In this document: in pieces, positions 1 to 57,485 of the stretch
Numbering within the stretch: position 1 is the first letter of the stretch
Layout: each line of letters begins with the position of its first letter
DNA from: an uncultured Erysipelotrichaceae bacterium
Lineage (GTDB): Bacteria; Bacillota_I; Bacilli_A; RF39; UBA660
Direction of reading: 5' to 3'
Assembly: GCA_902788975.1 (NCBI GenBank)
Contig: CADAMI010000001.1
Location: 1-61,914 of the forward strand
Length of the DNA stretch: 61,914 nucleotides
Program-made: the position numbers and the translations under genes
The notes under the pieces: model-generated
What the model saw: the letters and a program-made list of their open reading frames with translations, nothing else
Told to the model about the DNA's origin: nothing
Database searches by the model: none

Positions 1-70
1 TGATTCTGTGGTTTCTATCCATCTGTTCACATTTTCAATACTCTTCAGACCATCCCTTGTCGCAATAGCA
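1..70. repeat. Terminal direct repeat, copy 1 (identical to 61845-61914)
   Basis: 70/70 nt identity read directly. Implies a circular or terminally redundant unit of 61,844 bp. Confidence 0.97.
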
Positions 71-6325: not shown

Positions 6326-6737
6326 TCCACCTAAAATATTTATTATATATAACATCATCATTACATATTTTTAAAATATGTCTAACAACATCATTCATAT
6401 CTAAATATCTTTTTAAATAATTCATATCTAAAATTCTATCTTTTATAGCTTTATTTTCTAGTAATCCATTTAAAACATCATTATAAGATAATGATGTCGC
6501 TAAAATACTATATCCATTTCTACAAATGAAATTATTTGCCTTTTTATCGTGCAACATCATAGCTATAAATTTTTTAGTGGTTTTGTCTCTAATACCACTA
6601 TCTATAATATCTAATATAGTTATATCTGTACCATAAGAATTAATTTTTTTATCCCAATTATATTTTTTTGAATTTAATATCTTATGTAAGACTATTTTTT
6701 CCATAATATCATCATTCAAATTATCATCTCCATTCAT
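6309..6737 (-). CDS. Hypothetical protein
   Basis: 142-aa ORF with an ATGA overlap to the upstream small ORF. Confidence 0.65.
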   Translation of the reverse strand: MNGDDNLNDDIMEKIVLHKILNSKKYNWDKKINSYGTDITILDIIDSGIRDKTTKKFIAMMLHDKKANNFICRNGYSILATSLSYNDVLNGLLENKAIKDRILDMNYLKRYLDMNDVVRHILKICNDDVIYNKYFRWNDDCE

Positions 6738-6865
6738 TTATAAAATACAAATTTAAATTTATCACATTCTGTTTTTTTAGGTTGTTGTTTTTTATAACAA
6801 CAATCTACTTTATATTTCCTTTTATATTCATAATATACACAAAAAGGACATAAATATATACTCAT
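6734..6865 (-). CDS. 43-aa Cys-rich (CPFC...CC...C) small protein directly after nrdD
   Basis: ATG 6865 abuts the nrdD stop. MSIYLCPFCVYYEYKRKYKVDCCYKKQQPKKTECDKFKFVFYK. Confidence 0.45.
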   Translation of the reverse strand: MSIYLCPFCVYYEYKRKYKVDCCYKKQQPKKTECDKFKFVFYK

Positions 6866-8881: not shown

Positions 8882-9069
8882 TTTTTCCACCTACCTTTTT
8901 TATATCTTCTTCTTGCTCTTTTAAGGGTGTCTAATTCAATTTTTTCAGCAAATGTTAATATACCTTGTTTTTTCTTTTCTTCTAATCTATTAATATTTAA
9001 ATTTCTATAAAACTTATCATTATCCATTTGCCAACGTTTTCGCCTTTTGTAATACCTTTTTTTACTCAT
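8878..9069 (-). CDS. Small, very basic protein (K/R-rich)
   Basis: MSKKRYYKRRKRW...RRRYKKGRWKK. ATGA-coupled to nrdD. Confidence 0.6.
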   Translation of the reverse strand: MSKKRYYKRRKRWQMDNDKFYRNLNINRLEEKKKQGILTFAEKIELDTLKRARRRYKKGRWKK

Positions 9070-9070
9070 T

Positions 9071-9304
9071 TTAATCAACTAACCAAATAATATACATACC
9101 TTCTCTTAAACAATAAAGCATTAATATTTCGTGTTCTTTAATATTTTCTTTAGCTTCAATAATATGTCTATTTTCTTTAATAATATCATTACTAATAGCT
9201 GTAATTAATCTATCATTATCGTGTTCACCTAACTTAGAAGCATTATCGAAAAGAATATCGTAATCATCAATACTTAAGATTAAAATATTATTAGTCTTTT
9301 TCAT
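9071..9304 (-). CDS. Hypothetical protein
   Basis: ORF-track 9071-9376 has a hydrophobic out-of-context extension. ATG 9304 (MKKTNNIL...) overlaps the end of the dcd-like gene. Confidence 0.55.
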   Translation of the reverse strand: MKKTNNILILSIDDYDILFDNASKLGEHDNDRLITAISNDIIKENRHIIEAKENIKEHEILMLYCLREGMYIIWLVD

Positions 9305-9800
9305 TATAATCACCATCATATAATGTACCATTTTTAACTTCAAAACTAACACAAGTAGCAATCCTTTCATTAGCACTAATAAAAAATGGATTTAAACTAT
9401 TATTAGTTATTAAAAATTGTAAATGTCCTATAAAACCACTATCACCTAATGCAGTATCTAATGAAACACCACATCGTAATAAAGTGCTTCTAGGTAAATA
9501 AAATTGTGCGATATTTTTAGGTATTTCCATTTTACCATCTTCTTTATTACCTTTAACAAAAGCAATATAAGAAGTTTTAGGTTGTAAAACATAACCACTT
9601 CTACCATACAATTCTTCCATTTTAATTTCTTTAGGTTTAGGTATTAATTTAGTTGAACCAAAAATACCAACAAAACCTTCATCTAAAGCTAATGGTATTT
9701 CACAAATCTTATCTAATCTTAAATCTAAACTATTAGGTTGATAATCATCTCTATCAAGATTAGGATAGAGAAATTTAATATCTTTAAATCCCATAATCAT
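9291..9800 (-). CDS. dcd: dCTP deaminase/dUTPase-family protein
   Basis: PRSTLLRCGVSLDTALGDSGFIGHLQFLITN matches the dCTP deaminase/dUTPase signature region. Confidence 0.75.
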   Translation of the reverse strand: MIMGFKDIKFLYPNLDRDDYQPNSLDLRLDKICEIPLALDEGFVGIFGSTKLIPKPKEIKMEELYGRSGYVLQPKTSYIAFVKGNKEDGKMEIPKNIAQFYLPRSTLLRCGVSLDTALGDSGFIGHLQFLITNNSLNPFFISANERIATCVSFEVKNGTLYDGDYNEKD

Positions 9801-9811
9801 ACTATCACCAT

Positions 9812-10237
9812 CTATTCATCTTTATTAAAAACTTTAACAAAATTACCATTAAGTTCTCTTTCTAATTCATATTCTTCTAAATTAAGTAATCTAGAATAAA
9901 TTTTATTATACATTTTTAATTGTCTTTCATCTACACCATAGCGATGTCTATATTCTGATAAATCAATTTCCAAATCTCTTTTTTGTAGATATAATTCTCT
10001 ATAATCTGGAATACTCATAATATACATTTCTCTTTCTTCTTTATTGTTACAACCTACAGCTTTAAAATCAGTATTTAATCTAATTTCTATTTCAGCTAAT
10101 TGTAACTGTTCTTGAGTTTTCATAATTTCAGTACCAGTTTTAGTAATTAAATCGCTAGTAATTTCCATACTTTTTAATGTTTCTTCAATCTTTTTTTCTA
10201 ATTCGTTTATTTCTTCTCTTAAATTTTCATTCAACAT
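9812..10237 (-). CDS. Hypothetical coiled-coil protein
   Basis: 141-aa ORF, heptad-rich. Confidence 0.65.
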   Translation of the reverse strand: MLNENLREEINELEKKIEETLKSMEITSDLITKTGTEIMKTQEQLQLAEIEIRLNTDFKAVGCNNKEEREMYIMSIPDYRELYLQKRDLEIDLSEYRHRYGVDERQLKMYNKIYSRLLNLEEYELERELNGNFVKVFNKDE

Positions 10238-10248
10238 TTTATCACTCC

Positions 10249-11388
10249 TTAATTTAAATAATCTCTAATCCCATCGATTAAATCAGAGAAATTATCTACT
10301 AATCCATCGATGGGTGCATTAATATTATTTAAATAATCTTTTTTATCAGATTCTTCATAAATAGTAATGCTTTTAGTATCTTCTTTAGGTGGAAATAAAT
10401 CAGCTAAAGAAGTCAAATTTTCATAATCCAATAATTCTAAATCGGATTCTTCTTCATATAATGAACCTAATGTTCCATTATAATCTTCTAATAATTCTTC
10501 AACATCATAATGTTTATAGAATACATCATCATCGCAATATGTGTATTCATCATATTTTGTTTCAGAATTACGTTCTACTATATCATTATCTAAGATATAG
10601 TTTAATGCCACGTTTAAAGCTTCATTTGGGGTAAGTTTATCATACCATAAGCAGTCATAATAAACTTCTACAGTATCATAACCGTACTCTTTTTCGAGCC
10701 AGTCAGCATACCATTCTTCGTTTTCCCAACCAGCTTTATCATCATCGCATTTATCATAAAGGTCATCAAAGCCATAATAATCATAATAATCATAATCTTT
10801 GGTGCTAGATGCAGTCCAGTAATTACTATACCATCTGTGATATAAATTACTATAAAAGACTCCATTATCTTCTTCAAATTCTCCAACTAATGAAACTCCA
10901 GTAGTTTCTACTATAGCCCATTTAGCACCAGTAAGTCTGTCAATCATTTTTAAATCTTGACTGTTATCAAAATTAATGCTAGAGCCATATAAATCTTCAA
11001 TAATGTATGAAGCAGTATCATTTAATCCAGATATTAATTTTTGATTAGAAATAGTACCATTCATAAATAAAACTGGTGTATCTCCTTGATAATCTAATAA
11101 TTCCATATCATCTTTTCTATTAGATAATAAAAATGGGTGGCATTGAGCAGAAGATGTTTTTCCCCTACTAGTTATACGGAAATGTATAACTCTTTCTATA
11201 TTGGAATCATCTATAATATCTAAATTTTCTTTATAGAAATTTTTAAAAGTTTTATATCCTTTAGAATAATTAACTTTTTCATCTTTAATCCAAGCTATTC
11301 CAGCTCCATCATCATTATAATCAAAAGCATCTCTTAATTCTTCTTCTTGTATTTTTGTACCAATAGGTAAATAAATTATTACGCACAT
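10249..11388 (-). CDS. Ntn-hydrolase / class-II glutamine-amidotransferase-like protein with an acidic-aromatic C-terminal half
   Basis: Starts MC (Cys2 nucleophile). HFRITSRGKTSSAQCHPF resembles the GATase-II/YafJ motif. The last ~200 aa are extremely D/E/Y/W-rich. Confidence 0.6.
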   Translation of the reverse strand: MCVIIYLPIGTKIQEEELRDAFDYNDDGAGIAWIKDEKVNYSKGYKTFKNFYKENLDIIDDSNIERVIHFRITSRGKTSSAQCHPFLLSNRKDDMELLDYQGDTPVLFMNGTISNQKLISGLNDTASYIIEDLYGSSINFDNSQDLKMIDRLTGAKWAIVETTGVSLVGEFEEDNGVFYSNLYHRWYSNYWTASSTKDYDYYDYYGFDDLYDKCDDDKAGWENEEWYADWLEKEYGYDTVEVYYDCLWYDKLTPNEALNVALNYILDNDIVERNSETKYDEYTYCDDDVFYKHYDVEELLEDYNGTLGSLYEEESDLELLDYENLTSLADLFPPKEDTKSITIYEESDKKDYLNNINAPIDGLVDNFSDLIDGIRDYLN

Positions 11389-11419
11389 CGTATCACTTCC
11401 TTTTCATTTTTTTTCACGT

Positions 11420-11490
11420 GTACTCCACTAACTTTGAGTACTATATTAATAATTAATACCCCCAAGTAATATAAGGCATTATTGCCTTAT
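11420..11490 (-). promoter_or_regulatory. Structured ~120-nt leader of the amidotransferase-like gene (two hairpins)
   Basis: GTACTC-N10-GAGTAC at 11420-11441. Perfect ATAAGGCA-TTAT-TGCCTTAT at 11471-11490. Both lie between promoter copy P1 and ATG 11388. Confidence 0.4.
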
Positions 11491-11508
11491 ATCTAAATAT
11501 TAACTTCT

Positions 11509-11553
11509 TTCTATATATTATATATGTTTTTCATAGTATATAAAGGTTTCGGT
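11509..11553 (-). promoter_or_regulatory. Repeated BRE/TATA promoter cassette, copy P1
   Basis: Minus strand ACCGAAACCTTTATATACTATGAAAAACATATATAATATATAGAA. TTTATATA box at 11537-11544. Confidence 0.6.
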
Positions 11554-11554
11554 T

Positions 11555-11899
11555 TCAAACCCTTATTAATTTATATTTTTTATGTGTTTTATAACTTCCG
11601 TGTTTATCGTGTCCACAAACAGCACAATAATCTGCTCCACATTTTCTACAAGTAAATTCTTTTTCTGGAACACCTTTAGGATTTTCCCGTAAAGTATTAT
11701 ACTTTTTACAATGTGGGCAATAATCATAAAACTTAACGTTAAACCATTTATATTTAACTTTATTTATGTAACAAGTTCTACAACTAGGTTTCGCTTTCAT
11801 CTTAATAGTAGGTTTCTTTATTTTAGCAGCATCTACATCAGATGTTGCCGTTACAAAAGATATACCTATTATTAAGAATACTATAAATATTAAATACAT
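11555..11899 (-). CDS. Secreted or membrane-anchored Cys-rich protein (four CxxC pairs)
   Basis: N-terminal hydrophobic segment MYLIFIVFLIIGISFVTA, then CRTC, CPHC, CRKC, CAVC. Has its own promoter copy P2 and a GGAGAG RBS. Confidence 0.65.
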   Translation of the reverse strand: MYLIFIVFLIIGISFVTATSDVDAAKIKKPTIKMKAKPSCRTCYINKVKYKWFNVKFYDYCPHCKKYNTLRENPKGVPEKEFTCRKCGADYCAVCGHDKHGSYKTHKKYKLIRV

Positions 11900-11921
11900 A
11901 TATTTCTTAATAATAACACTC

Positions 11922-11966
11922 TCCTATATATTATATATGTTCTTCATAGTATATAAAGGTTTCGGT
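11922..11966 (-). promoter_or_regulatory. Promoter cassette, copy P2
   Basis: Near-identical 45-mer (one substitution). TATA at 11950-11957, about 50 nt upstream of ATG 11899. Confidence 0.6.
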
Positions 11967-11988
11967 CATATGACCTACTATGAAGAAA

Positions 11989-12237
11989 TTAAACACTAAA
12001 TATGTTTAATAATGATACTATAATGTTACCTATTTTTAAAGTTAATTCTCTACTAACACCCAAATGGATTAACTTAGTATCACTAGTTGTACTTGTATTT
12101 TTATAATACAATACACCATAATGAGTATCAATAGGTCTATCTTTTAAACAATAAGTCTCATCATAATACTCAGCTTTTATAATAAAAGCATCAATTTTTT
12201 TATTTTCTTCTAACCAAAATCTACTATAATTATTCAC
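11989..12237 (-). CDS. Hypothetical protein
   Basis: 82-aa ORF downstream of 12257-12814 in the same transcription unit. Confidence 0.55.
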   Translation of the reverse strand: MNNYSRFWLEENKKIDAFIIKAEYYDETYCLKDRPIDTHYGVLYYKNTSTTSDTKLIHLGVSRELTLKIGNIIVSLLNIFSV

Positions 12238-12256
12238 ATTTTCACCTTAAAAGAAT

Positions 12257-12814
12257 TTAATTAGAAAATCCTAAGATTTTCTGTTTTAATTCTTCATATT
12301 CATCATCAAATCTACTAACTCCAAATCTACTTTCTGTAATTTCAGATAAATAGTAATCTTCATCGATTATATCTTTATGAATAAATACTTTCAAATAATC
12401 GCTATAAATAAAATCTTTAGGATTATATGATTCTATTCCTATATATAAAGTTCCACCACCTATAATAAGAAATTTAGAATCATTAAAATCTGTGTCATCT
12501 TCCCATTTTATCCAAAGATGTTGATTTTTTTCTCCAAAGAAATTAATGTTAATAAATTCAATAATTTCTTTCTTATTTTTTAAAGCATTAGTTAAAGTAC
12601 TAATATCTTTATCTTCTAAAAATATTGCAAGATTTTTAACTAATGAATGTCTTATTGTACCATCGTGTTCTACAAATCCTATTTCATAAAGAATAGTCAT
12701 TGCTAAATAATGGTATATATTAAAAATATGGTCTTTATTATTTAAGTCTTGACCCAATCCTATTAATCTTTCTTTTTCTTCTTTATTTAAAGTTAAATTA
12801 TTTTTTAATTTCAT
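12257..12814 (-). CDS. Hypothetical protein
   Basis: 185-aa ORF behind promoter copy P3 and a GGAGAT RBS. Confidence 0.7.
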   Translation of the reverse strand: MKLKNNLTLNKEEKERLIGLGQDLNNKDHIFNIYHYLAMTILYEIGFVEHDGTIRHSLVKNLAIFLEDKDISTLTNALKNKKEIIEFININFFGEKNQHLWIKWEDDTDFNDSKFLIIGGGTLYIGIESYNPKDFIYSDYLKVFIHKDIIDEDYYLSEITESRFGVSRFDDEYEELKQKILGFSN

Positions 12815-12840
12815 TTTATCATCTCCATTATGTTATGTAT

Positions 12841-12884
12841 TTCTATATATATATATGTTTTTCATAGTATATAAAGGTTTCAGT
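12841..12884 (-). promoter_or_regulatory. Promoter cassette, copy P3
   Basis: ttctatatatatatatgtttttcatagtatataaaggtttcagt; minor variants of the consensus. Confidence 0.55.
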
Positions 12885-12890
12885 TTTAAC

Positions 12891-12980
12891 CCCCTACTTT
12901 ATATACTATACCCCCCCCCCAACCTAATATCCAACTAATGGTACTACTACTGTAGTACAAGGTTAGTTACCCTTTTACAC
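12891..12980 (-). ncRNA. Candidate small non-coding transcript downstream of orphan promoter copy P4
   Basis: No ORF between P4 and P3. Contains a nested hairpin (AACTAA..GTACTAC-TACT-GTAGTAC..TTAGTT, 12933-12968) and a C10 run (12911-12920). A plus-strand TTTATATACTAT at 12897-12908 leaves orientation open. Confidence 0.3.
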
Positions 12981-13018
12981 TATTATATATGTTTTTCATA
13001 GTATATAAAGGTTTCGGT
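12981..13018 (-). promoter_or_regulatory. Promoter cassette, copy P4 (distal end truncated, no gene behind it)
   Basis: tattatatatgtttttcatagtatataaaggtttcggt read directly. Confidence 0.5.
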
Positions 13019-13028
13019 AGTTTACTTA

Positions 13029-13418
13029 CTATGAAACTAATATTTTAAAAGAATAAGTATCTCTAATTTTTAAAAACATTTTAATAATGCTATTAATATT
13101 AGTAGGATTACTCTTAATCATAATAAACATATGATAATGGTCATCTATTTTTTCATTATTAATTATTTTCATTTCACTAAATCTTTGCTGCATATTAATA
13201 AGGTCTTGACCAGCATAACTACCAACTTCATATTCTACAATAATATAAATAATAGCATTATTAGATAATAAAAAATCATATTTATCAATAAAATAATTAA
13301 TCATATATCTCATCATTTCAGACCTACTACGAAAACCTAAAGACTCAGCAACACTATCATATTTATTTATAGTTTTTTTATCTAAAGCGTGTAATTGCAT
13401 ACTCATAGTATTACTCAT
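13029..13418 (-). CDS. Ribbon-helix-helix (CopG/Arc-like) DNA-binding protein with an extra C-terminal domain
   Basis: N-terminal ...YDSVAESLGFRSRSEMMRYMINYFI resembles the RHH pattern. Behind promoter copy P5. Confidence 0.55.
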   Translation of the reverse strand: MSNTMSMQLHALDKKTINKYDSVAESLGFRSRSEMMRYMINYFIDKYDFLLSNNAIIYIIVEYEVGSYAGQDLINMQQRFSEMKIINNEKIDDHYHMFIMIKSNPTNINSIIKMFLKIRDTYSFKILVS

Positions 13419-13430
13419 ATAATCACCTAC

Positions 13431-13475
13431 TTCTATATATTATATATGTTTTTCATAGTATATAAAGGTTTCGGT
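13431..13475 (-). promoter_or_regulatory. Promoter cassette, copy P5
   Basis: Exact consensus 45-mer. Confidence 0.6.
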
Positions 13476-13594
13476 TTTATGACCTTTTATTTTTTAAAAA
13501 TTTATGAATAAACGCTTTAGCATTAGGGTTAAGATAATGCTTTTTATGCTTTCTTAAAGATTCTAAAATCATACTTTCTTCAAAAAAACATAAA

Positions 13595-13750
13595 TCATCT
13601 TTGTTTATCTTTCTCAATAAAACCACCACATTCACAAATATTTCTACCAAAACCATCTACCTTAACTATAGGTAATAACATAACGTTACAAAAACCATCT
13701 GGATTATCGTTTTCACATACATCACATAAACAACTAAGTATATAATTCAT
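13595..13750 (-). CDS. 51-aa Cys-rich small protein (below the ORF-track cutoff)
   Basis: ATG 13750 behind AGGTG. MNYILSCLCDVCENDNPDGFCNVMLLPIVKVDGFGRNICECGGFIEKDKQR. Confidence 0.4.
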   Translation of the reverse strand: MNYILSCLCDVCENDNPDGFCNVMLLPIVKVDGFGRNICECGGFIEKDKQR

Positions 13751-13761
13751 AATATCAACAC

Positions 13762-14328
13762 CTAACATTTAAATGGTTCTGAAAAATCTCCATTTTCCAA
13801 ATATTTTTCAAAAGCTATAAGTATAGTTAAATATTCTCTAGCTTTATACAAATCTTCAATCTTATTTTTATCTTGATACCTTATTAAATATTTAATAACG
13901 TTACCTTTTAAAAAACCTAAAGTTTCAGTACTACTCATCAACCCATTAGTAAAAGCGTCTATTGGAGTCATACCATTTTTACTATAATGCTTAGGTCTAT
14001 GAATATTATTAATTCTACCTTCAGCATCTAATTTAGGTTTTTTTAAAGTTACACCAGTACAAATTTTTCCAGTCATACTTGAAACTTTTTTATATATTTC
14101 ATATTTATTATCAGATAATGCTAACCAAGCTAAGATTTTTGCATTTAAGTTATAATAAAAACCTTTCTTATCTTTAGCATATTCTTTTTCTAATTTTTCA
14201 TTTATGCTATCATAAGTTTCAGTAATTACAATTTTAGTACCATTATTATTAAATTCATAATTAACAATAATATCATCATTGACACAATCAACATTTTTAA
14301 CAACAATATTTAAATTCAGTTTTACCAT
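13762..14328 (-). CDS. DUF3310-family phage protein
   Basis: GNVIKYLIRYQDKNKIEDLYKAREYL matches the conserved core of the DUF3310 family as I remember it. Confidence 0.55.
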   Translation of the reverse strand: MVKLNLNIVVKNVDCVNDDIIVNYEFNNNGTKIVITETYDSINEKLEKEYAKDKKGFYYNLNAKILAWLALSDNKYEIYKKVSSMTGKICTGVTLKKPKLDAEGRINNIHRPKHYSKNGMTPIDAFTNGLMSSTETLGFLKGNVIKYLIRYQDKNKIEDLYKAREYLTILIAFEKYLENGDFSEPFKC

Positions 14329-14341
14329 CTCCTTTATGTAT

Positions 14342-14386
14342 TTCTATATATTATATATGTTTTTCATAGTATATAAAGGTTTCGGT
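14342..14386 (-). promoter_or_regulatory. Promoter cassette, copy P6
   Basis: Exact consensus 45-mer. Confidence 0.6.
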
Positions 14387-14564
14387 TTCAACTATCAAGA
14401 TTAATCAATTTAAAACCATCATTACCTTTAATAAAACAATAACCTTTATCTGGAGATAAAGATTTAATATTTTTAATTATTTTTTCAGTTACATATTCTT
14501 GTAATTCAATACAAGATTTTTCATCATCTATAATTTCAATCTCAATTTCAATTATATCACCTAC

Positions 14565-14609
14565 TTCTATATATTATATATGTTTTTCATAGTATATAAA
14601 GGTTTCGGT
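14565..14609 (-). promoter_or_regulatory. Promoter cassette, copy P7
   Basis: Exact consensus 45-mer. Confidence 0.6.
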
Positions 14610-14612
14610 AGT

Positions 14613-15413
14613 TTATAATACATCAAACAAAGTATTAATAACAAAAGGAGATAAAGAATTATTTACTTTAAAAATAAAATCATTAACATCATACCCACTT
14701 AAATCATAATTATCACTATACCCATTAATCCTAGCTATTTCACGAATAGTACAAGTAGTACGTTTAGGATTAAAATGGTAATAATGCTTCCCAGTATCAT
14801 TATTAATTGGGAATAACATAGAAATCCTATCAGCATTATCTATTTCATCTCTAAGTTTTTTACTATTAGAAGGTTTTTTATTACTACCATCAGCAAATTT
14901 CTTTTTATCTATATTATTCTTAATACCTAATTTTTTAAACACATCATCTTTTACACCTAATTCTGAAAAGATTTTATATTTTTCAAAATTAGCAGCAGCA
15001 TTATTATTAGGGATATTTAAAGTATCAGCTATTTTATAATATTCCTTTTCTAGTTTATCGATTTTTTTACCATACAATAATGCTATAGGAGCTATATGAT
15101 TATGTGGAATAGCTATTAAATCAATATCATCACTAAAAGAAAAGTATATTTTTTCTTTGCTGCAAATTATTAATAATCGCATAATATTATTAGGTAAACC
15201 AAAAAATGTATTAGATGCAATACCTTTAAATAATATATGGAAACCTTTTGATTGTAATTTGGTTGTCAGTTTTTTATACAAAATATCATCATTAATTAAT
15301 TTAGAAGGTAAATCTAAAATAAGTTTATCATTATAAAAAAAGTCAAAATCTAAATTAATTAAATCTCTTATACCTTTTTTAGAATTCAAATTTACATAAT
15401 TATCATTAAACAT
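14613..15413 (-). CDS. DNA (cytosine-5)-methyltransferase-like protein lacking the N-terminal catalytic motifs (truncated or degenerate)
   Basis: GFHILFKGIASNTFFGLPNNIMRLLII (motif VIII-like), TIREIARINGYSDNYDLSG (motif IX), VNNSLSP (motif X-like). No FxGxG or PCQ motif. Start moved to ATG 15413 behind GGAG. Confidence 0.45.
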   Translation of the reverse strand: MFNDNYVNLNSKKGIRDLINLDFDFFYNDKLILDLPSKLINDDILYKKLTTKLQSKGFHILFKGIASNTFFGLPNNIMRLLIICSKEKIYFSFSDDIDLIAIPHNHIAPIALLYGKKIDKLEKEYYKIADTLNIPNNNAAANFEKYKIFSELGVKDDVFKKLGIKNNIDKKKFADGSNKKPSNSKKLRDEIDNADRISMLFPINNDTGKHYYHFNPKRTTCTIREIARINGYSDNYDLSGYDVNDFIFKVNNSLSPFVINTLFDVL

Positions 15414-15437
15414 TTTAACATTCTCCAAAAAATTAAA

Positions 15438-15520
15438 GGTTGGTAAAAATAGTTCGTATACTAGCGAAATTGAGTCCTCAAATTTCGTTCGTATACTTGC
15501 GAACAGTTCGCATACCAACC
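15438..15520. repeat. Nested repeat complex (operator or recombination-site candidate)
   Basis: An 8-bp IR GGTTGGTA/TACCAACC brackets two 17-bp direct repeats GTTCGTATACT(A/T)GCGAA (15452-68, 15487-503). These flank the palindrome CGAAATTGAG-TC-CTCAAATTTCG. Confidence 0.85.
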
Positions 15521-15574
15521 AATTGTTATAAAAATGTTGAATAAAAATAGTATTCGGCAATCATTGTATTATCA

Positions 15575-15690: not shown

Positions 15691-15706
15691 TTTAAAATGT
15701 GAAAAA
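15691..15706. repeat. 16-nt direct repeat TTTAAAATGTGAAAAA, left copy (partner at 20510-20525)
   Basis: Read directly. The two copies bracket the amidoligase island plus the iteron array. Confidence 0.8.
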
Positions 15707-16121
15707 TCATAATATTGACTTGGGTGCAAACAAACGACGTAGCTGCCGTATTGGGATTTTTCGGTGGTGGTATGCCCGTTTTTGACCTTATAAACCATAG
15801 ATTTTTGGTTATAGCTTCAAAGGGTCATTTTTATGAAAAAAAGTTGATTTTAGTTTGATTAAGTTGTGTAATATTGATTAAAGCCTAATCCAGTTACTCT
15901 TAGCTATTTTTATATTATTTTTTCAAAAAAGCTGTTTCAAGTTTCTTAAGATTTGTTAAAGTTTTGAAGTTTTTCTTCGATGTTTATTATTACTTTTATA
16001 GTATCGAAGTATTACATAAAAAACACTAAGAATTTGAAGTAATATAATAGAATCATACAAGTATCTATATGATTAAAATGAGTTTTATAGAATTTGTTTT
16101 ATATATTACAAACTAATTTAG

Positions 16122-16163
16122 CTGCCGAAAAAAATAAAATAGAGAACTTAGTGTTCTCTATAT
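16122..16163 (-). terminator. Stem-loop plus T-run terminator after the island operon
   Basis: Minus strand ATAGAGAAC-ACTAA-GTTCTCTAT followed by TTTATTTTTTT, starting 1 nt after stop 16164-16166. Confidence 0.7.
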
Positions 16164-17243
16164 CTATTCTAGGTCGTTTTCTGCTTCTTCAGCCAATCTA
16201 GCTTCTCTCTCGTAATATCTTTTATTACGTCTCGCTACAAACTGTAAAAGCTGTATTGAGTGTCCAGTTGTCTCAGAAAGGAATTCTATGAACCTATCAG
16301 CTGTTAAGGCTCTTTCTAAGTCCTCTTCGTTATAAATAACTGTCTCTGCGTATATCAATAGATGGTCGCATATCTCTACGGAGCAATAGATGCTTTCTAG
16401 GTCTAAAGAACCTCTGAAGAATCGGAATTCTATTGTTTCGCGAGTGAAGTTCACCGCTAGGTATCTACTGAAACTAATGAGCCTATCTAGGTCATAGTCT
16501 TCAATATTAGGGATACGGCAGTATCCCATTCCGTTTCTGCCGCTTATAGCTTTTATAAAGGTTGGATTAGCTATTATAAATTTAATTAGGAATTGAATAG
16601 CTTCTTTAGACCATTCGTCTTTGCTGAAATGTACGTGCAATCCACAGTTGCCTCCGTTCCAGCTGCGAATCCTATAGGTTTCTCTTAGGTCTGTAAGGAG
16701 ATTGCAGATGTCTTTGTAGCCTACTTCTCTCCAGTACTCTCTAGTCATTGGGTCAGTTATGATTTCGACCCCATCAGTTAATGAGCCATCTCTTTCGAAG
16801 TAAAAGCTGTCTGTATATCCACTAAGGATATCACAGAACCCTTCGTCTATCCCATCGTGAATAGATTCTATTTCGAGCTCAAAGCCTCTGTAAGCTACTT
16901 TGAAGGATTCTCCGTTGTCTCTAGGTGCAAAACAGCCCTTATGCGCGTGATAGTCTTGAATGGGGCTCATAGATTCTTCAGATCCTGTTACGCAACACCC
17001 ACAGTAGGTTAAGCCATCATAGCCCTCGTGAGTATGCTCAAGGCTCAATAATCTTCCACAGCCTTCGCAGATGCAAGTATTGTCGTAAAGCTGCTGTGTA
17101 GCTTCTTCGATTTGCTCAATCAATGCTCTAGTGTCGCAGCACATTGAGTAATTGTTATCGATTATCTCAGTTGCGTTAAGAATTACTTCGCAAATGTCGC
17201 TAAAGTTAAGTCCATTTAAGATTGTTTCGTTTCTGTTAGTCAT
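16164..17243 (-). CDS. Zinc-ribbon + glutamine-synthetase-like carboxylate-amine ligase (Amidoligase_2-type), paralogue 1
   Basis: CEGCGR...HTHEGYDGLTYCGCCV; RGFELEIES; ERDGSLTDGVEIITDPM; GGNCGLHVHFS; ETIEFRFFRG. Confidence 0.7.
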   Translation of the reverse strand: MTNRNETILNGLNFSDICEVILNATEIIDNNYSMCCDTRALIEQIEEATQQLYDNTCICEGCGRLLSLEHTHEGYDGLTYCGCCVTGSEESMSPIQDYHAHKGCFAPRDNGESFKVAYRGFELEIESIHDGIDEGFCDILSGYTDSFYFERDGSLTDGVEIITDPMTREYWREVGYKDICNLLTDLRETYRIRSWNGGNCGLHVHFSKDEWSKEAIQFLIKFIIANPTFIKAISGRNGMGYCRIPNIEDYDLDRLISFSRYLAVNFTRETIEFRFFRGSLDLESIYCSVEICDHLLIYAETVIYNEEDLERALTADRFIEFLSETTGHSIQLLQFVARRNKRYYEREARLAEEAENDLE

Positions 17244-17280
17244 ATTTAGTTCCTCCGTTTGTTATATAAGTTGTTTAGAT

Positions 17281-17778
17281 TTATTGTAGTTCTTCTAGCT
17301 GTATTCTAGATTGTTGTTCTAATTTTTTTCTAAAGGTTTCTAAAAGTTCTTCGTATGTTTCAGATTGCTCTATAGTTGTTTTAGCCCCATTGAGCCACCC
17401 CCAGATGACTCTATAGTGTCTAATCTTATCGTAGCAACCTTCGATTGTATTTAAGTGTCTTTTGGTCGCAGGAATGTATTCTAGCCTTCCGATTATCCAA
17501 AGGGATATAGGATAATCGTCTTCGACTAATTCGGTTATTATTAGGTCGTCATAATAATTAAGGCATTTCCATAAGGCTTTTAGCTTCAATTCGACTTCTT
17601 CTAGGTCTTTATTTAAGCAGTCAACCACGTAGCTGGTTGAAAAGCATTCTAGTTCCCATAGATAATGTTTAATTAATTCATAGGGATTGGAGTATAATCC
17701 GTGCTTTTCAGCAAATGTTTTAGAATGTGCGAATTTAAATTCTTCAATTGTAGGTGCTTCGTTGTTTCTTATAGTCAT
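17281..17778 (-). CDS. Hypothetical acidic protein (island)
   Basis: 165-aa ORF behind TTAACGGAGGAACTAAAATG. No motif recognised. Confidence 0.7.
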   Translation of the reverse strand: MTIRNNEAPTIEEFKFAHSKTFAEKHGLYSNPYELIKHYLWELECFSTSYVVDCLNKDLEEVELKLKALWKCLNYYDDLIITELVEDDYPISLWIIGRLEYIPATKRHLNTIEGCYDKIRHYRVIWGWLNGAKTTIEQSETYEELLETFRKKLEQQSRIQLEELQ

Positions 17779-17854
17779 TTTAGTTCCTCCGTTAATAATT
17801 TAAGTTATTTAAGTTCATATTTTTAAAAAGGGGTAATTTAGTACCCCTTCGTGC

Positions 17855-18883
17855 TTAATAGCCTCTTTGAGCTATGCGTTTTTGTTTTAAGTTCCATATA
17901 CGATGTCTTCGTGCTATGAAGCCTAATAAGATGTCTGCATTTGAAGTAGTTGCTCTTAGCCATTCTTCGAATCCTCTAGGGCTCAAGGTATAATCGCAGA
18001 TGTCTCCGTTCTCGCTTATATGCTCGCAGTATCTTAATAGGTAATCGCATAATTCGATACTGCACCAGATGCTCGGAGTATCCAAAGTACCCCTAAAGAA
18101 TCTGAATTCAGCGGTTTCACGAGTGAAGTTCACCGCTAGGTATCTCTCAGAGTTATAAAGGCTTTCTAAGTCGTAGTCATTGAAATTAGGGATACGGCAA
18201 TATCCGAAATCGTCTCTACCGCTCAAAGCTTTGAAATAGGTCGGATTCGCAATTATTAGTTTAATTAATGTTCTGAAGGTCTCGCTAGACCATTCGTCTC
18301 TACTGAAGTGGACGTGGAGACCGCAATTTCCTCCGTCCCAACTGTAGACTCCTCCGACCCCCTTAAGGTCTGTGATTAGGTCTCTTAGGACATCAAAGCC
18401 CACGTTCCTCCAGTATTCGAATGACATCGGATTTGAGATGACTTCGAATCCGTTATTTAGGCTTCCGTCCTCTTCAAAGGCAAATTCAGAATCATAGTTC
18501 TCTAAGATTTCGAATAGCTCTAAATTTAGCCCGTTTGTTTCAATTTCGAGCTCAAAGCCTCTAAATTTTTGAGGTAGAACCTCTCCGTTGTCTTTAAATT
18601 CATAAGTGCCTTTATGGTAATGGTAAGACCTAATAGGACTGTAAGCTCTGTTCGCATCTTCTACGCAACACCCACAGTAGGTATTTCCGTCGTAGCCTTC
18701 GTGAGTGTGTCCGTAGGAGATTATTCTACCGCAGTTTTCACAGACATTCATTTCGTCTGCGAAGGTACTTGCGTAGCTTATAAGTTCATCAAGATATCCT
18801 TGTAGTTCGCAACAAACCCCTTCGTTGTCTAAGTTTTGTGCAGCGTCTAAGATTCTTTCGATTTGTTGTTGTGCGTAAGTCAT
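17855..18883 (-). CDS. Zinc-ribbon + Amidoligase_2-type ligase, paralogue 2
   Basis: CENCGR...HTHEGYDGNTYCGCCV; RGFELEIET; EEDGSLNNGFEVISNPM; GGNCGLHVHFS; ETAEFRFFRG. Roughly half the residues are identical to paralogue 1 by eye. Confidence 0.7.
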   Translation of the reverse strand: MTYAQQQIERILDAAQNLDNEGVCCELQGYLDELISYASTFADEMNVCENCGRIISYGHTHEGYDGNTYCGCCVEDANRAYSPIRSYHYHKGTYEFKDNGEVLPQKFRGFELEIETNGLNLELFEILENYDSEFAFEEDGSLNNGFEVISNPMSFEYWRNVGFDVLRDLITDLKGVGGVYSWDGGNCGLHVHFSRDEWSSETFRTLIKLIIANPTYFKALSGRDDFGYCRIPNFNDYDLESLYNSERYLAVNFTRETAEFRFFRGTLDTPSIWCSIELCDYLLRYCEHISENGDICDYTLSPRGFEEWLRATTSNADILLGFIARRHRIWNLKQKRIAQRGY

Positions 18884-18907
18884 TTTAGTTCCTCCGTTTC
18901 ATCTAAG

Positions 18908-19093
18908 TTATAAGTAGTTGCCGTTTAACTGTGCGATTATATTTTTAGTGTCTAAGATTCTCATAAAAAGGTCTTTAGGAATCCAGTTACCTTTGTAGGC
19001 AGCACGTTCCAATTCAAGTTCTTTTAAAGTTTCAAGTTCTGTTTCTAGGTATTGTAACCAGTCAAAAGTTTCTTCGTTTTCGTAATAGTTCAT
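18908..19093 (-). CDS. Hypothetical small acidic protein (61 aa, island)
   Basis: ORF-track 18908-19132. Start moved to ATG 19093 behind TAGGAGGAACTAAAATG (MNYYENEETFDW...). Confidence 0.6.
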   Translation of the reverse strand: MNYYENEETFDWLQYLETELETLKELELERAAYKGNWIPKDLFMRILDTKNIIAQLNGNYL

Positions 19094-19124
19094 TTTAGTT
19101 CCTCCTAGTAAGATTAGCTGGAAT

Positions 19125-19454
19125 TTAGTCATTCCAGCTTAATATTTGGTCTAAGACCTCTAAAGCTTCTTCGTATGCATCAGTAGTTATTTGAGCTTTT
19201 AAAAGCTCTAAATCGTTCTCTCTAGCACTTTCGTACCAACCTCGTAAGTAATAAGCGTCTGACACACCGTGAGATTCTAATTCGTTAATTCGTTCCCATG
19301 CGTATCCCATTCGCTCATCGTAGAACTGTTCGTTATCTTTAGATATACAGATTGCTTCTTCTACGAGATTAGCCACGTAGTCTACTTCACAGGTGCTTAG
19401 GAGGTCATAGACCTCTTTAAGCACAGTTTTTCTAATATCAATTGGTTCGCACAT
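19125..19454 (-). CDS. Hypothetical acidic protein (109 aa, island)
   Basis: Behind AACGGAGGAATCTAAATG. Abuts the next gene. Confidence 0.65.
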   Translation of the reverse strand: MCEPIDIRKTVLKEVYDLLSTCEVDYVANLVEEAICISKDNEQFYDERMGYAWERINELESHGVSDAYYLRGWYESARENDLELLKAQITTDAYEEALEVLDQILSWND

Positions 19455-19742
19455 TTAGATTCCTCCGTTTCTAATAGAATGACCGTAGCCTTCAAAGTTA
19501 CCATAAGTACCATCTCTAGTCAATTCGAATTCTATAGCTTCTTCAAAGGTATATAAAAGCTCAAGATATTTCTTCTCAGAACATTTAAGGTTCTCACGGT
19601 TCTCGAAATCCTTCAAGACCATTTCGATTTCTCCACCAACGTCATCAAGCAACATACGTTGTTTGTATGGGCTCAAAGTACTTACGATGCTTCTTGCGAA
19701 ACATTCGGACAATTTTGCGTATTCAGATTTTTCAAAAGTCAT
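19455..19742 (-). CDS. Hypothetical protein (95 aa, first gene of the island operon; ends ...RNGGI)
   Basis: Behind AACGGAGGAATTTCTTATG. Confidence 0.65.
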   Translation of the reverse strand: MTFEKSEYAKLSECFARSIVSTLSPYKQRMLLDDVGGEIEMVLKDFENRENLKCSEKKYLELLYTFEEAIEFELTRDGTYGNFEGYGHSIRNGGI

Positions 19743-20040
19743 AAGAAATTCCTCCGTTCTATTGGAGCTTTACTCTCCAACAGTTGCTTTCTTCTACCTA
19801 TTGGGCAACGCTCCTACACTCGCAAAAACGACATTAACCATTGCAAAAATCACTTAGATTCGAAGAAAAGCTTATAGCTTTTTTAGATACTTTATGTAAT
19901 TAAAACGCCGTTTTTTCTTACTTAAAGTTACTTTAACGCCGAAAACGATTCTGTATTCTTTATTAGTATAGTACCGTTTTATGAATCGAGTAAAACGGAT
20001 TTAGGGGAATCTAATAGCTCAATTCGGATCCAAGAATCAC

Positions 20041-20334
20041 TATAGTTTTATAAAATACTAACAGTTTCAAAGTACATAAACAGTTTCATCTACGTAAAAC
20101 AGTTTCAAAGTATACAAACAGTTTAATAGTACATAAACAGTTTCAAAGTACATAAACAGTTTCATCTACGTAAAACAGTTTTATAAAATACTAACAGTTT
20201 CAAAGTATATAAACAGTTTAACAGTACACGAACAGTTTCAAAGTACATAAACAGTTTAATAGTACATAAACAGTTTCAAAGTACATAAACAGTTTTTAAA
20301 AATACGAACAGTTTCATTGACGTAAAACAATCGT
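20041..20334. repeat. Iteron array: 16 contiguous 19-bp units with invariant AACAGTTT core
   Basis: Core starts at 20060, 20079 ... 20307, exactly every 19 nt, with degenerate end units at 20041 and 20326. There are four unit subtypes, with a partial 133-bp higher-order repeat. Confidence 0.95.
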
Positions 20335-20357
20335 GGCGTGGCGTGGGCGTGGCGGTG
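20332..20357. repeat. CGTGG pentamer tract (cgtgg cgtgg cgtggg cgtgg cggtg)
   Basis: Read directly. Bracketed by the inverted 8-mers AATCGTGG (20329-36) and CCACGATT (20423-30). Confidence 0.9.
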
Positions 20358-20440
20358 TCCACAAATTTGAAAACGCACCTAAATTTTTTCTGCTCCTTTT
20401 AATGGACTTTGTGTAGCACTCCCCACGATTTTTTATTTTT

Positions 20441-20510
20441 TTATTTATCAATATTTATCAATATTTATCAATATTAATCAATATTTGATTTTTATCAAAT
20501 TTAAAATGTG
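20441..20510. repeat. About 4.5 copies of the 11-bp unit TTTATCAATAT, ending in a near-palindrome
   Basis: ttatttatcaatatttatcaatatttatcaatattaatcaatatttgatttttatcaaat. Confidence 0.85.
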
Positions 20511-20525
20511 AAAAAAATTTTTTTA
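20510..20525. repeat. 16-nt direct repeat TTTAAAATGTGAAAAA, right copy
   Basis: Identical to 15691-15706. Confidence 0.8.
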
Positions 20526-20535
20526 TAAAAAATAC

Positions 20536-20575
20536 ATTATATATAACAAATACTTAGTATATAAAGTGGGGGTGG
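20536..20575 (-). promoter_or_regulatory. Diverged eighth copy of the promoter cassette, reading into the iterons and island
   Basis: Shares attatatat-N10-tagtatataaag with the consensus (N8 there). A G-rich GGGGGTGG replaces the GAAACC upstream element. Confidence 0.35.
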
Positions 20576-20700
20576 CGTGTATATAAAAATTTTTTATTTA
20601 CTTTTTAAATAATATAAAAATAGAATAGTATTACGTACACGGGGTGGGTATTATTATATAAAAAATATATATAAAAAAATAAATTCTTTTTTTTTCATTT

Positions 20701-20736
20701 AACCCATTGTACCCAATAAACCCATTGTACCCAATA
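20701..20736. repeat. 2 x 18-bp exact tandem AACCCATTGTACCCAATA (four ACCCAWT cores at 9-bp spacing)
   Basis: Read directly. Confidence 0.9.
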
Positions 20737-20737
20737 A

Positions 20738-20940
20738 ATTTATATAAATATAAATATAAATATATAAAAAATAATATATATTATATTTAATAATATATTA
20801 TTTTAAATAATATTTAATTATTTAATTATATAATATTATATATTATTATTTATAATAAAAATATAAATTTTATTAATAAATAATTATAAATAATATATTA
20901 ATAATTTATATAATTACTTTTACAATCATTCAATATATTG
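20738..20940. other. ~200 bp of almost pure A/T: candidate DNA-unwinding element
   Basis: Only a handful of G/C in 20738-20940. Adjacent to the iterons and other repeats. Confidence 0.5.
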
Positions 20941-20945
20941 AATGA

Positions 20946-22240: not shown

Positions 22241-22312
22241 TCACCTTTGTATTAAATATAATATTAACAATAACATCATTCCAAAAAATATTAAAAATAA
22301 ATAATTATTCAT
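22241..22312 (-). CDS. 23-aa single-TM peptide immediately upstream of the lysin
   Basis: AGGGGAT RBS, ATG 22312, MNNYLFLIFFGMMLLLILYLIQR. Its last codons form the lysin RBS. Confidence 0.4.
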   Translation of the reverse strand: MNNYLFLIFFGMMLLLILYLIQR

Positions 22313-22323
22313 AAAATAATCCC

Positions 22324-23211
22324 CTATATTGTGTATATTCGATAATTTTTAAATTTTATACTACAAGTCTTATATAACTGAAATCCCATATAATAATTTG
22401 TTCTATTTGATATTGTTGTAGTTCTTATTAATGTATCATTAACATATTGTTTTATTGATGTTCCAGTTTTTTCCATTTTCAGATGATATGGTGCAGTATA
22501 ACTGGCTAAATTAAAGTTTATTCCAAGTCCTTGTAATAAAAATGCAATTTGACTCCCACTTCCAAAAGTGGTGCTTACTACATCACATTCTATTATAAAA
22601 TCTTCTATGGTAACTGGTGGGGTTTCACTTGTTACATTTTGTGGGTTTGCAAAATAGTATCTTGATGTTGTTGTACTTGTATTTGATAAGTTTGTTCCAT
22701 CTTTTCCAACTGTTACTGTTAATCCAGATGTGTCTGCACTTCTTACGAACCAATGTGTATCTTTGTTGTTTGTTACTGCATAATCTATCATTACATCGAT
22801 TACTTGTATTGTTTTACTTGCAGTTTCTGTGCCATAGGTTACTGTGTATGTGGTAGTGGTGGTTATGGTTTGGTTGAATAAGGTGTAGATTCCATCACTA
22901 TCAGTTGTTCCATTGTAACTGTTTGTTCCATCACTAATTGTTATAATCTTGTTAGATAATGGGTTGCCAACACCATCCAGTAATCTAACAGTTATATCAA
23001 TTGTTTCTCCACTTGTTACATATGGTCTGTTCGGTATTATTTGAATGTTAGTATCACCAATTCCCATAAGATTTTGTTCATTAACTAATTTTACCATATC
23101 ATAGATTGTTTGTTCACCAGTACCAATACCAAAAGTACAGTTTATACCACGATTATTAAGGTTATTTTCTAATGTATTGCCAATATTCTGTATATTATCA
23201 CAAATACTCAT
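22324..23211 (-). CDS. Receptor-binding/tail-fibre protein, short paralogue (one lectin-like C-terminal domain)
   Basis: The N-terminal ~130 aa align with 23224-24567 (MSICDNIQNIGNTLENNLNNRGINCTFG...). The C-terminus ends ...SIKFKNYRIYTI, as in concanavalin-like/DUF1080-type domains. Confidence 0.6.
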   Translation of the reverse strand: MSICDNIQNIGNTLENNLNNRGINCTFGIGTGEQTIYDMVKLVNEQNLMGIGDTNIQIIPNRPYVTSGETIDITVRLLDGVGNPLSNKIITISDGTNSYNGTTDSDGIYTLFNQTITTTTTYTVTYGTETASKTIQVIDVMIDYAVTNNKDTHWFVRSADTSGLTVTVGKDGTNLSNTSTTTSRYYFANPQNVTSETPPVTIEDFIIECDVVSTTFGSGSQIAFLLQGLGINFNLASYTAPYHLKMEKTGTSIKQYVNDTLIRTTTISNRTNYYMGFQLYKTCSIKFKNYRIYTI

Positions 23212-53981: not shown

Positions 53982-53992
53982 TATTAACACCG

Positions 53993-57480: not shown

Positions 57481-57485
57481 TTTAA

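Follow-up and report, generated by a model that had tools for sequence, protein, structure and literature searches.

Amidoligase_2 enzymes, which were reportedly first predicted in 2009, comprise more than 31,000 clusters and are thus one of the largest enzyme families carried by phages for which the reaction is not known. In phiEco32, mycobacteriophage Marvin, the LUZ24-like phages, the OM43 phages MEP401/402 and the Poseidoniales virus Vyasavirus they are encoded together with a class-II glutamine amidotransferase (GATase). Cell-wall and metabolite roles have been proposed for the phage pair (PMC10580990), and a role is not established for any of the phage amidoligase-GATase pairs (PMC10580990, PMC11706807); the two genes have also been reported in Poseidoniales archaeal viruses (PMC11706807). 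Here we analyze a block of six genes, two of which encode Amidoligase_2 paralogues (ligases A and B), in a stretch of 61,914 nt (contig CADAMI010000001.1, assembly GCA_902788975.1; the whole stretch is called the window below). Although deposited under the name of an uncultured Erysipelotrichaceae bacterium, the contig is the complete circular assembly of a tailed Methanobrevibacter virus. A preliminary description of this DNA knew of no such system in an archaeal virus, which was too strong in view of the Poseidoniales viruses; among methanogen viruses, the amidoligase-GATase combination was found in none of those catalogued and is described in none in the searchable literature. With this locus, the family now includes enzymes from viruses of Methanobrevibacter, the genus that dominates among the methanogens of gut and rumen.

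The locus is a real example of a known phage enzyme family and by itself reveals no new kind of system. Its ligases share Pfam family, PHROG and fold with the phage enzymes, their zinc-ribbon or LIM-like N-terminus is common in the family, and a homologous GATase-like protein of the N-terminal nucleophile (Ntn) type is encoded by the present virus as well. Unlike those of the phage pairs, the ligases belong to a divergent clade, form a tandem duplicate and are not physically coupled to the GATase gene, which belongs to the backbone; in addition, the pair is carried by a compositionally foreign, recombining cassette with a repeat array, and the host is a methanogen. What is new is thus organizational: the tandem B-to-A pair, the uncoupling of the GATase, and a mobile cassette with co-varying repeat arrays. 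The ligase is separable from its usual GATase neighbor, and in the present clade the conserved unit is the B-to-A pair, not the small neighboring genes. The cassette is exchanged among methanogen viruses that are close relatives, so that genomes with and without it can be compared in nature; relatives that carry it are present in sample ERZ28436063, and empty-site relatives in SRR24653711. The substrate is not revealed, however, and as the virus is uncultured, the question is hardly more testable here than in cultivable phages.

Beyond the family, the best structural matches of the ligases are YbdK/GCS2 and glutamine synthetase (GS), with the same ExE...HxH...ExR order by alignment, and this common fold and motif order would imply ATP-dependent acyl-phosphate chemistry. 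The ligases differ from these enzymes in their low identity (10-15%), in TM-scores of 0.35-0.44, in the lack of a sequence-level match to any solved GS-like structure and in their extra zinc ribbon. As a genetic element, the block resembles phage morons, with which it shares a deviant G + C content (overall and at third codon positions, GC3), a deviant ribosome-binding site (RBS), a terminator of its own, presence/absence polymorphism and a lysis gene as neighbor. Morons are known from bacteriophages, whereas the present virus is archaeal and a long tandem array, resembling the core of the backbone promoters with their B recognition element (BRE) and TATA box, lies upstream.

Two Amidoligase_2 paralogues

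Ligases A and B (359 and 342 aa) are 49% identical. Alignment confirmed the motifs quoted for them in the preliminary description: both have the zinc ribbon CxxC...HTHEGYDGxTYCGCC (C48, C51, C70 and C72/73 in ligase B) and the core motifs RGFELEIE, DGSL..G.E, GGNCGLHVHFS and ET.EFRFFRG. The Pfam family Amidoligase_2 (PF12224) matched the two proteins with 29.4 and 37.9 bits against a gathering cut-off of 22 (E 2.4e-9 for ligase B and 9e-7 for ligase A), phrog_16683 matched them over nearly their full length (4e-19 for B, 3e-21 for A), and a further match was to phrog_2443, annotated 'amidoligase enzyme' (1e-12). An AlphaFold2 (AF2) model of ligase B, built on 32 homologues, reached a mean pLDDT of 89.6. 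Its Foldseek matches in the PDB were YbdK (1r8g, E 1e-5), many GS entries and Dop, with E-values from 1e-5 to 1e-3 and a probability of 1.0; in a library of viral models it matched dozens of 'amidoligase enzyme' entries with E-values down to 1e-18, including fusions to a 'LIM domain' and to a 'glutamine amidotransferase domain'. Thirteen residues are invariant in the 32 sequences (G109, E111, E113, D139, S141, G145, E147, G188, H190, R223, N252, E259 and R261) and follow the order of the GS metal/ATP motifs (ExE, D.S..G.E, HxH including H192, R, ExR). As all of them are kept in both A and B, both ligases are probably active. Profile searches, structure prediction and the invariant motifs thus agree in placing the paralogues where the preliminary description had placed them, among the GS-like Amidoligase_2 enzymes. 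A sequence-profile search of the PDB returned zinc-finger/LIM and MurT-ribbon matches and did not reach the catalytic core. Amidoligase_2 was the sole Pfam family reported for the ligases at E<=1, with no match to Pup_ligase.

A full-library profile search recovered 31,121 clusters (50% identity, E<=1e-3), while relatives at least 45% identical to the present ligases were found in only four other contigs; anything else was at most 35% identical. The family is thus very large but this clade is rare, and no member of the clade was found in IMG/VR, in GTDB genomes, in JGI metagenomes or in a search of phage DNA. One of the contigs with relatives, L003, carries an array followed by a B-like and an A-like ligase gene 77 nt apart, with no small gene before or between them. 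The B-like ligase is 55% identical to B and 42% to A, the A-like ligase 53% to A and 47% to B, and the synonymous divergence (dS) between A and B is about 2, i.e., saturated. These values indicate that the A/B duplication is old and predates the split from L003, and the conserved core is the ligase pair in B-to-A order.

A divergent cassette with signals of its own

The operon and the elements around it are as follows, from its upstream to its downstream end, with the GATase-like gene given last.

20060 to 20330, minus strand: repeat array of 14 head-to-tail 19-nt units, at the upstream end of the divergent cassette
19743 to 20059, minus strand: non-coding leader from the array to the first gene, GC 0.33
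19455 to 19742, minus strand: acidic ORFan of 95 aa, pI 4.8
19125 to 19454, minus strand: very acidic ORFan of 109 aa, pI 4.1, net charge -17
18908 to 19093, minus strand: acidic ORFan of 61 aa with an RBS-preceded ATG at 19093, directly upstream of ligase B
17855 to 18883, minus strand: ligase B, 342 aa, with an N-terminal helical hairpin, a zinc ribbon and a predicted GS-like carboxylate-amine ligase core
17281 to 17778, minus strand: predicted all-helical ORFan of 165 aa, between ligases B and A
16164 to 17243, minus strand: ligase A, 359 aa, paralogue of B with the same zinc ribbon
16129 to 16161, minus strand: operon terminator, hairpin ATAGAGAAC-ACTAA-GTTCTCTAT plus TTTATTTTTT
15700 to 16128, no strand assigned: non-coding DNA on the downstream side of the divergent block, including a GC-rich patch (about 15721-15790); downstream end of the block at about 15700-15620
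10249 to 11388, minus strand: class-II GATase-like protein, a backbone gene outside the cassette

The six open reading frames (ORFs) at 16164-19742 are co-directional and tightly packed, as had been described, with gaps of 0, 31, 24, 76 and 37 nt, and their translation signals set them apart. Five are preceded by the RBS ACGGAGGAA in the context ACGGAGGAA(y)TAAA(t)ATG, whereas upstream of the 61-aa gene the RBS is CTAGGAGGAA in the context CTAGGAGGAACTAAAATG; all six are thus of the GGAGG type, which was found in one of about 65 other genes, most of the others having (A)GGTGAT-type sites. The near-identical initiation cassette that the preliminary description contrasted with AGGTGAT elsewhere is therefore real. 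One 21-nt RBS-plus-start cassette, AACGGAGGAACTAAAATGACT, occurs twice in identical form. The terminator claimed for the block was also found: a 9-bp hairpin at 16161-16139 begins 2 nt past the stop codon of ligase A and is followed by TTTATTTTTT. A second hairpin, AGGGGTA-CTAAAT-TACCCCT followed by TTTTT, lies directly after ligase B (17820-17852, minus strand), and possibly acts as an attenuator inside the operon, setting B apart from the two genes that follow (the 165-aa gene and ligase A).

The coding block has a GC content of 0.389 and GC3 values of 0.32-0.43, compared to 0.259 and 0.13-0.20 in the backbone. Its non-coding flanks are as large as had been noted (1203 and 603 nt), and the GC-rich flank, with 31 G + C in the 60 nt at 15721-15780, could be reproduced. 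The cassette is located where the lysis gene meets the genes of nucleotide metabolism; the gene for the PeiR-type lysin lies about 1.8 kb upstream of it. A repeat search found no flanking direct repeats or att-like sites around it, no Rep, integrase or partition gene was detected in it with Pfam, PHROGs, NCBIfam or PADLOC, and tRNA and Rfam scans found nothing.

Related viruses carry the block in several states. In a sister virus (L001, a 55-kb ENA contig from another sample) the block is present at the same place, and a Logan contig from another run (L002) crosses the downstream junction. As these independent assemblies cross the junctions, the block is not an artefact of assembly, a possibility that the preliminary description had raised. 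The window and L001 are 96-99% identical on both sides of the block and 75-93% identical between about 20330 and 15700: identity drops to 74-80% at the array, is 81-86% in 15700-16128 and returns to 98-99% below 15700. Correspondingly, dS to L001 is 0.30-0.52 in the five shared cassette genes and 0.08-0.11 in the genes for the lysin, a 105-aa protein, a methyltransferase (MTase)-like protein and the GATase, i.e., four to five times higher in the cassette than in its flanks. The contrast in dS and identity indicates that the cassette has a history separate from that of the backbone. In L005, a different cassette (proteins of 130 and 62 aa and a single ligase 45-47% identical to those of the window) is joined to a flank sharing 97% identity with the window, alignment resuming at 15593; in L014/L016 it resumes at 15622. 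In L012, the MTase-like gene is preceded by 1.3 kb of AT-rich non-coding DNA without a ligase, so that this contig represents an empty-site relative. Composition, RBS and divergence all mark the block as foreign to the backbone, as had been proposed, and the region from about 15700 to 20330, including the array, is best described as a recombining cassette. Other mosaic segments between the window and L001 were seen at 13400-14100, with 81-89% identity around a DUF3310 gene, and at 22300-23000, with about 50% identity in the gene upstream of the lysin; thus the cassette is not the sole exchanged module.

Repeat array, leader and GC-rich patch

The consensus of the array unit on the coding strand is GAAACTGTTTATGTACTTT (TRF and repeat search). 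Nine of the ten occurrences of its core, GAAACTGTT, in the genome lie inside the array, against 0.87 expected. The unit, GAAAC-TG-TTTATGTACT-TTG, resembles the backbone promoter core GAAAC-C-TTTATATACT-ATG, and TATA-like TTTTATAAAA boxes are present in two units (at about 20190 and 20055). The backbone core belongs to an element of about 45 nt, ACCGAAACCTTTATATACTATGAAAAACATATATAATATATAGAA, near-identical copies of which occupy intergenic sites before seven early genes (11509-14611, minus strand). With its textbook BRE/TATA core, CGAAACC-TTTATATA, this element looks like a strong archaeal BRE + TATA promoter with a conserved downstream part.

A homologous array is located 114 nt upstream of the ligase in L003/L004, L001 has a rearranged variant and L005 an unrelated array. 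Array type thus follows ligase type: AAACTGTT arrays accompany the ligases of the window, L001 and L003, and a TTCGGG/TCGTGAGATATAACTGG array accompanies the L005 ligase. In the leader (19743-20059), a stretch at about 19850-19791 (TGCAATGGTTAAT...CGTTGCCCAATAGGTAGAAG) is also recognizable upstream of the L003 ligase; no Rfam family matched the leader.

The GC-rich patch at the other end of the block, ACCACCACCGAAAAATCCCAA..., is partly conserved in L005 by formal alignment, and diverged copies immediately precede the MTase-like gene of L005, L014/L016 and the empty-site L012. As similar sequence was seen by eye at the same position in L014/L016 and L012, the patch was dropped as part of the ligase module. 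It can encode a hydrophobic peptide of 47 aa (..AAVLGFFGGGMPVF..; 15715-15858, plus strand), the ORF of which is open in L001 too. An RNA, a protein site and a small gene are each possible identities of the patch. Its predicted fold was not significantly structured (z = -1.3), and a sub-threshold Rfam match to SNORA16 (E 0.13) was rejected.

Upstream of the array, the non-coding backbone DNA at 20331-20945 contains four copies of CGTGG (20332-20354), 4.5 copies of TATTTATCAA (20442-20486), two copies of AACCCATTGTACCCAATA (20701-20738) and, at 20740-20930, a stretch of about 150 nt with 0-14% GC and nested palindromes. By these features, the region looks like a replication origin.

Four small acidic proteins as variable passengers

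The preliminary description treated the six genes as one system, with four very acidic small proteins as partners or tags of the ligases. The acidity is there (pI 4.1-5.1), but it is no special mark, as the ligases (4.6-4.7) and the GATase-like protein (4.1) are equally acidic. Similarly, the 95-aa protein does end in RNGGI, but this terminus is simply the RBS of the next gene read in frame (aga aac gga gga atc taa ATG). That none of the four has a nameable domain was upheld: Pfam, PHROGs, NCBIfam and PADLOC gave no significant match, and the best ones, phrog_1928 (E 0.007) and RT_UG19 (E 0.003), were treated as noise. For the 165-aa protein, a search of 5.8 billion clusters returned only two homologues, which belong to the same virus lineage, and its AF2 model was unusable (pLDDT 43). 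Compared with L001, the ratio of nonsynonymous to synonymous divergence (dN/dS) is 0.32 for the 95-aa gene, 0.26 for the 61-aa gene and 0.29 for the 165-aa gene, within the range of 0.20-0.32 for all five shared cassette genes, so that the small ORFans are real genes under purifying selection.

Their presence, however, varies from virus to virus. The 109-aa gene is missing in L001, where a 364-nt deletion (19141-19504 of the window) fuses the 95-aa gene to the last codons of the 109-aa gene; the L001 orthologue of the 95-aa gene is thus a fusion that lacks the last 15 codons or so. The 61-aa protein is 80% identical in L001, whereas its place in L005 is taken by a 62-aa protein that is not its homologue, and neither the 62-aa nor the 130-aa protein of L005 is homologous to the small proteins of the window (E 3.0 and 1.6). 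The 165-aa gene is absent from L003. In addition, the four C-termini differ (NGNYL, SWND, RNGGI and EELQ), without a conserved Glu/Gln end. Two L001 proteins, of 85 and 168 aa, both start with MTFEKNKYEE; together with the identical 21-nt RBS-start cassettes, this suggests gene shuffling at gene boundaries. Taken together, the four small acidic ORFans are lineage-restricted, variable passengers, and with small genes that vary or are absent in L001, L003 and L005, the proposal of a single six-gene system does not hold.

The GATase-like protein of the backbone

The product of 10249-11388 begins with MC, i.e., with Cys1, and contains the class-II motifs MCVIIY..., HFRITSRG..QCHPF and FMNGTISN. 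The Pfam match had an E-value of only 0.11, while BLASTP aligned the protein with a GATase_4 directly downstream of a distant ligase in L006 (1e-18, 30% identity) and with the GATase_4 partner in L009 (7e-11). It is therefore a class-II (Ntn, Cys1) GATase homologue. The preliminary description, which called it an Ntn/Cys2 protein, was right about the Ntn type; the link to the cassette was not supported, as the gene belongs to the backbone. It had also stated that in bacteria Amidoligase_2 genes adjoin genes for amidotransferase-like thiol peptidases, and such adjacency is indeed seen: a ligase gene is followed directly by a GATase_4 gene twice in L006, in L009 and in phage MEP402, and weakly so in L008. 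In L006, a distant phage contig, two successive amidoligase and GATase-like pairs with a helix-turn-helix gene between them occupy 6735-12207, so the module was duplicated independently elsewhere. In at least 12 related contigs (L011-L022), including the empty-site L012, the GATase gene lies next to the dCD and NrdD genes. Among relatives the homologues are 211-391 aa long, and the N-terminal domain is 50-69% identical in the closer ones. In the window the Ntn domain is followed by an acidic tail of 190 residues, rich in Asp, Glu, Tyr and Trp (DYDYYDYYGFDDLYDK...; 10249-10818).

Proposed mechanism and alternative explanations

The block is a self-contained, horizontally exchanged cassette of the moron type with a B-to-A ligase core, and we consider the explanation as a whole, in which this core would perform two-step amide chemistry on a non-protein target, somewhat probable (about 0.55). 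As in other members of the fold family, each ligase would use ATP to turn a substrate carboxylate into an acyl-phosphate, which would then be condensed with an amine or ammonia. Since both paralogues are conserved, A and B would each form a different amide bond, probably one after the other, and may work as a hetero-oligomer. The GATase-like protein would most likely deliver ammonia from glutamine or remove a gamma-glutamyl group, a role modelled on the amidoligase-GATase pairs that are widespread in phages; the ligases may be served by it, but it does not depend on them. The target is a matter of speculation and may be a nucleotide or DNA-base modification intermediate, or a precursor of pseudomurein or the envelope, in the latter case for superinfection exclusion. 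Speculatively, we rank such a non-protein substrate above tagging of the small proteins of the cassette.

Several observations weigh against this reading. The GATase gene is separated from the cassette by 4.8 kb and five backbone genes, being neither adjacent nor fused to a ligase gene; in composition it matches the backbone (GC3 0.15), its L001 counterpart is 99% identical (dS 0.09), and no ligase was found in up to 10 kb of DNA flanking its homologues in L011-L022. As it is unlinked to the cassette and retained in relatives without a visible ligase, the GATase may have an independent role. For the ligases, the TM-scores of the ligase B model to solved GS-like structures are modest, the match of the motifs comes from alignment, and no biochemical characterization of any Amidoligase_2 member was found in the literature searched. 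No canonical BRE/TATA of the backbone type could be located upstream of the first cassette gene. With regard to a DNA target, the genes for ParB and the TET-associated glycosyltransferases (TAGT) are more than 20 kb from the cassette, making the link to DNA modification circumstantial, and no 5-methylpyrimidine dioxygenase, DNA kinase or amino-acid:DNA transferase (AADT) was detected in the window. Finally, the purifying selection on the small genes and the RBS that they share with the ligase genes indicate that they do something, possibly with the ligases.

A possible, if doubtful, alternative is that the cassette is a collection of unrelated moron genes in a recombination hot spot, in which the ligases make a small metabolite and the small proteins act independently as anti-defence or host-takeover factors, e.g., as DNA mimics. 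The differences in gene content between cassette versions, the DNA-mimic-like charge of the 109-aa protein (pI 4.1, net -17) and the boundary shuffling suggested by the identical RBS-start cassettes and shared N-termini are consistent with this, whereas no match to a known anti-defence or defence family was obtained; moreover, this explanation is compatible with the preferred one and does not exclude it. We regard it as improbable that one or more of the small acidic proteins serve as a Pup-like tag or dedicated substrate, joined by A/B to lysines of viral or host proteins and processed or deconjugated by the Ntn protein. PafA and Dop do share the GS-like fold with the ligases, Dop is among the top PDB matches, small acidic proteins are encoded nearby in the same operon with the same RBS style and under purifying selection, and in the window, L001 and L005 the ligase gene is immediately preceded by a small gene. 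Nevertheless, the small proteins are not co-conserved with the ligases (L001, L003 and L005, with the 165-aa protein being lineage-restricted), Pup_ligase is not matched, and no Pup-like C-terminus with a conserved Gly-Gly-Glu/Gln-type motif exists, RNGGI being an artefact of the RBS; the evidence gives no support to a tagging system dedicated to the small proteins. Least credible of all is an assembly chimera or an integrated independent replicon, such as a plasmid or satellite with an iteron origin. The foreign composition and the iteron-like array beside an extremely AT-rich palindromic region would fit, but L001 and L002 cross the junctions, the contig closes with a 70-nt overlap, and neither Rep, integrase and partition genes nor flanking direct repeats were found.

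Two further proposals concern the target of the ligases. It is unlikely, though worth considering, that they amidate or extend a modified pyrimidine, adding to a ParB/TAGT pathway, with the zinc ribbon contacting nucleic acid. The window encodes ParB_N, three TAGT, a QueE-like radical-SAM protein, a dCD-like protein and NrdD; the MTase-like gene adjoins the cassette, and the GATase belongs to the nucleotide-metabolism module in all relatives. In viral metagenomes, amidoligase/GATase Pfam matches are co-associated with thymidine-hypermodification clusters (PMC8989533), and GATases are associated with ParB-dependent T-dioxygenases (PMC13229309). On the other hand, the window yielded no dioxygenase, hydroxymethylase, 5-HMUDK-type kinase or AADT, the cassette does not adjoin the TAGT/ParB genes (53993-57489), many phages with an amidoligase and a GATase are not known to possess hypermodified DNA, and L012 keeps the TAGT-type backbone context without the cassette. 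A bolder version is highly improbable: as array type co-varies with ligase type, the array might be a binding platform for the N-terminal helical and zinc-ribbon module, with B/A as a DNA-tethered ligase that would decorate glycosylated or hydroxymethylated bases. If true, no earlier case of an Amidoligase_2 enzyme with an assigned step in DNA hypermodification would exist, and this first one would come from an archaeal virus. Quite unlikely, finally, is amidation of pseudomurein precursors at free carboxylates (e.g., of Glu) by the ligases with ammonia from the GATase, for superinfection exclusion or lysis control. It would follow the proposal made for the phage pair (2009, phiEco32; summarized in PMC10580990) and the logic of MurT/GatD, in which a ligase and a glutamine amidotransferase amidate a carboxylate; the cassette lies close to the PeiR lysin gene, and the zinc ribbon of the ligases weakly matches the Cys4 ribbon of MurT (E 0.004). 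That likeness, however, is confined to a ribbon of about 45 residues and is not robust (E 0.3 with a broader profile). MurT has the Mur-ligase fold and GatD is a class-I GATase, whereas the cassette encodes no Mur-ligase domain and no envelope-related genes, and the proposal has no experimental support in any phage.

The virus and its other genes

An exact 70-nt terminal overlap joins window positions 1-70 and 61845-61914 and shows that the assembly is complete and circular, with a length of about 61.8 kb. All genes of the window lie on the minus strand and include those for TerL, TerS, portal, tail tube, a split PolB, NrdD and a dCD-like protein. The lysin is 47% identical over its full length to the endolysin PeiR of the Methanobrevibacter gottschalkii virus vir075, and the sole match of the portal protein is a Methanobacteriales virus. 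Together with the BRE/TATA element of the backbone, these matches support the earlier assumption of an archaeal virus. A 4.4-kb fragment of the same virus lineage (L010, JAEEJT010000141.1), with a lysin 96% identical to that of the window, is binned in a rumen 'Bacilli bacterium' metagenome-assembled genome. In view of the PeiR and Methanobacteriales-portal matches, we rejected it as true Bacilli DNA; it is most likely a mis-binned viral fragment, the binning error probably being driven by low GC.

Three tandem TAGT paralogues (PF20691) adjoin the ParB_N protein at 53993-57489 (minus strand); a QueE-like radical-SAM gene is located at 53286-54005 and a metallophosphoesterase gene at 57670-58434. 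This region is a module for the glycosylation of DNA bases such as Lactobacillus phage phi jlb1 is known to carry, and the virus thus probably has modified DNA; no Tet/JBP dioxygenase or hydroxymethylase was detected in the window. In the MTase-like gene next to the cassette (14613-15560), the Pfam model 'C5 DNA methylase' is matched in its C-terminal half alone, the relatives start at an internal Met (266 aa), and no PCQ-type motif IV with the catalytic Cys was seen by eye; its product may be inactive as a methyltransferase. Two genes, one for the exonuclease and one for the polymerase part, encode the split family-B DNA polymerase (1081-2079 and 60280-61407); they are adjacent in L011 and in the window are separated by about 1.6 kb of extra small genes across the contig ends.

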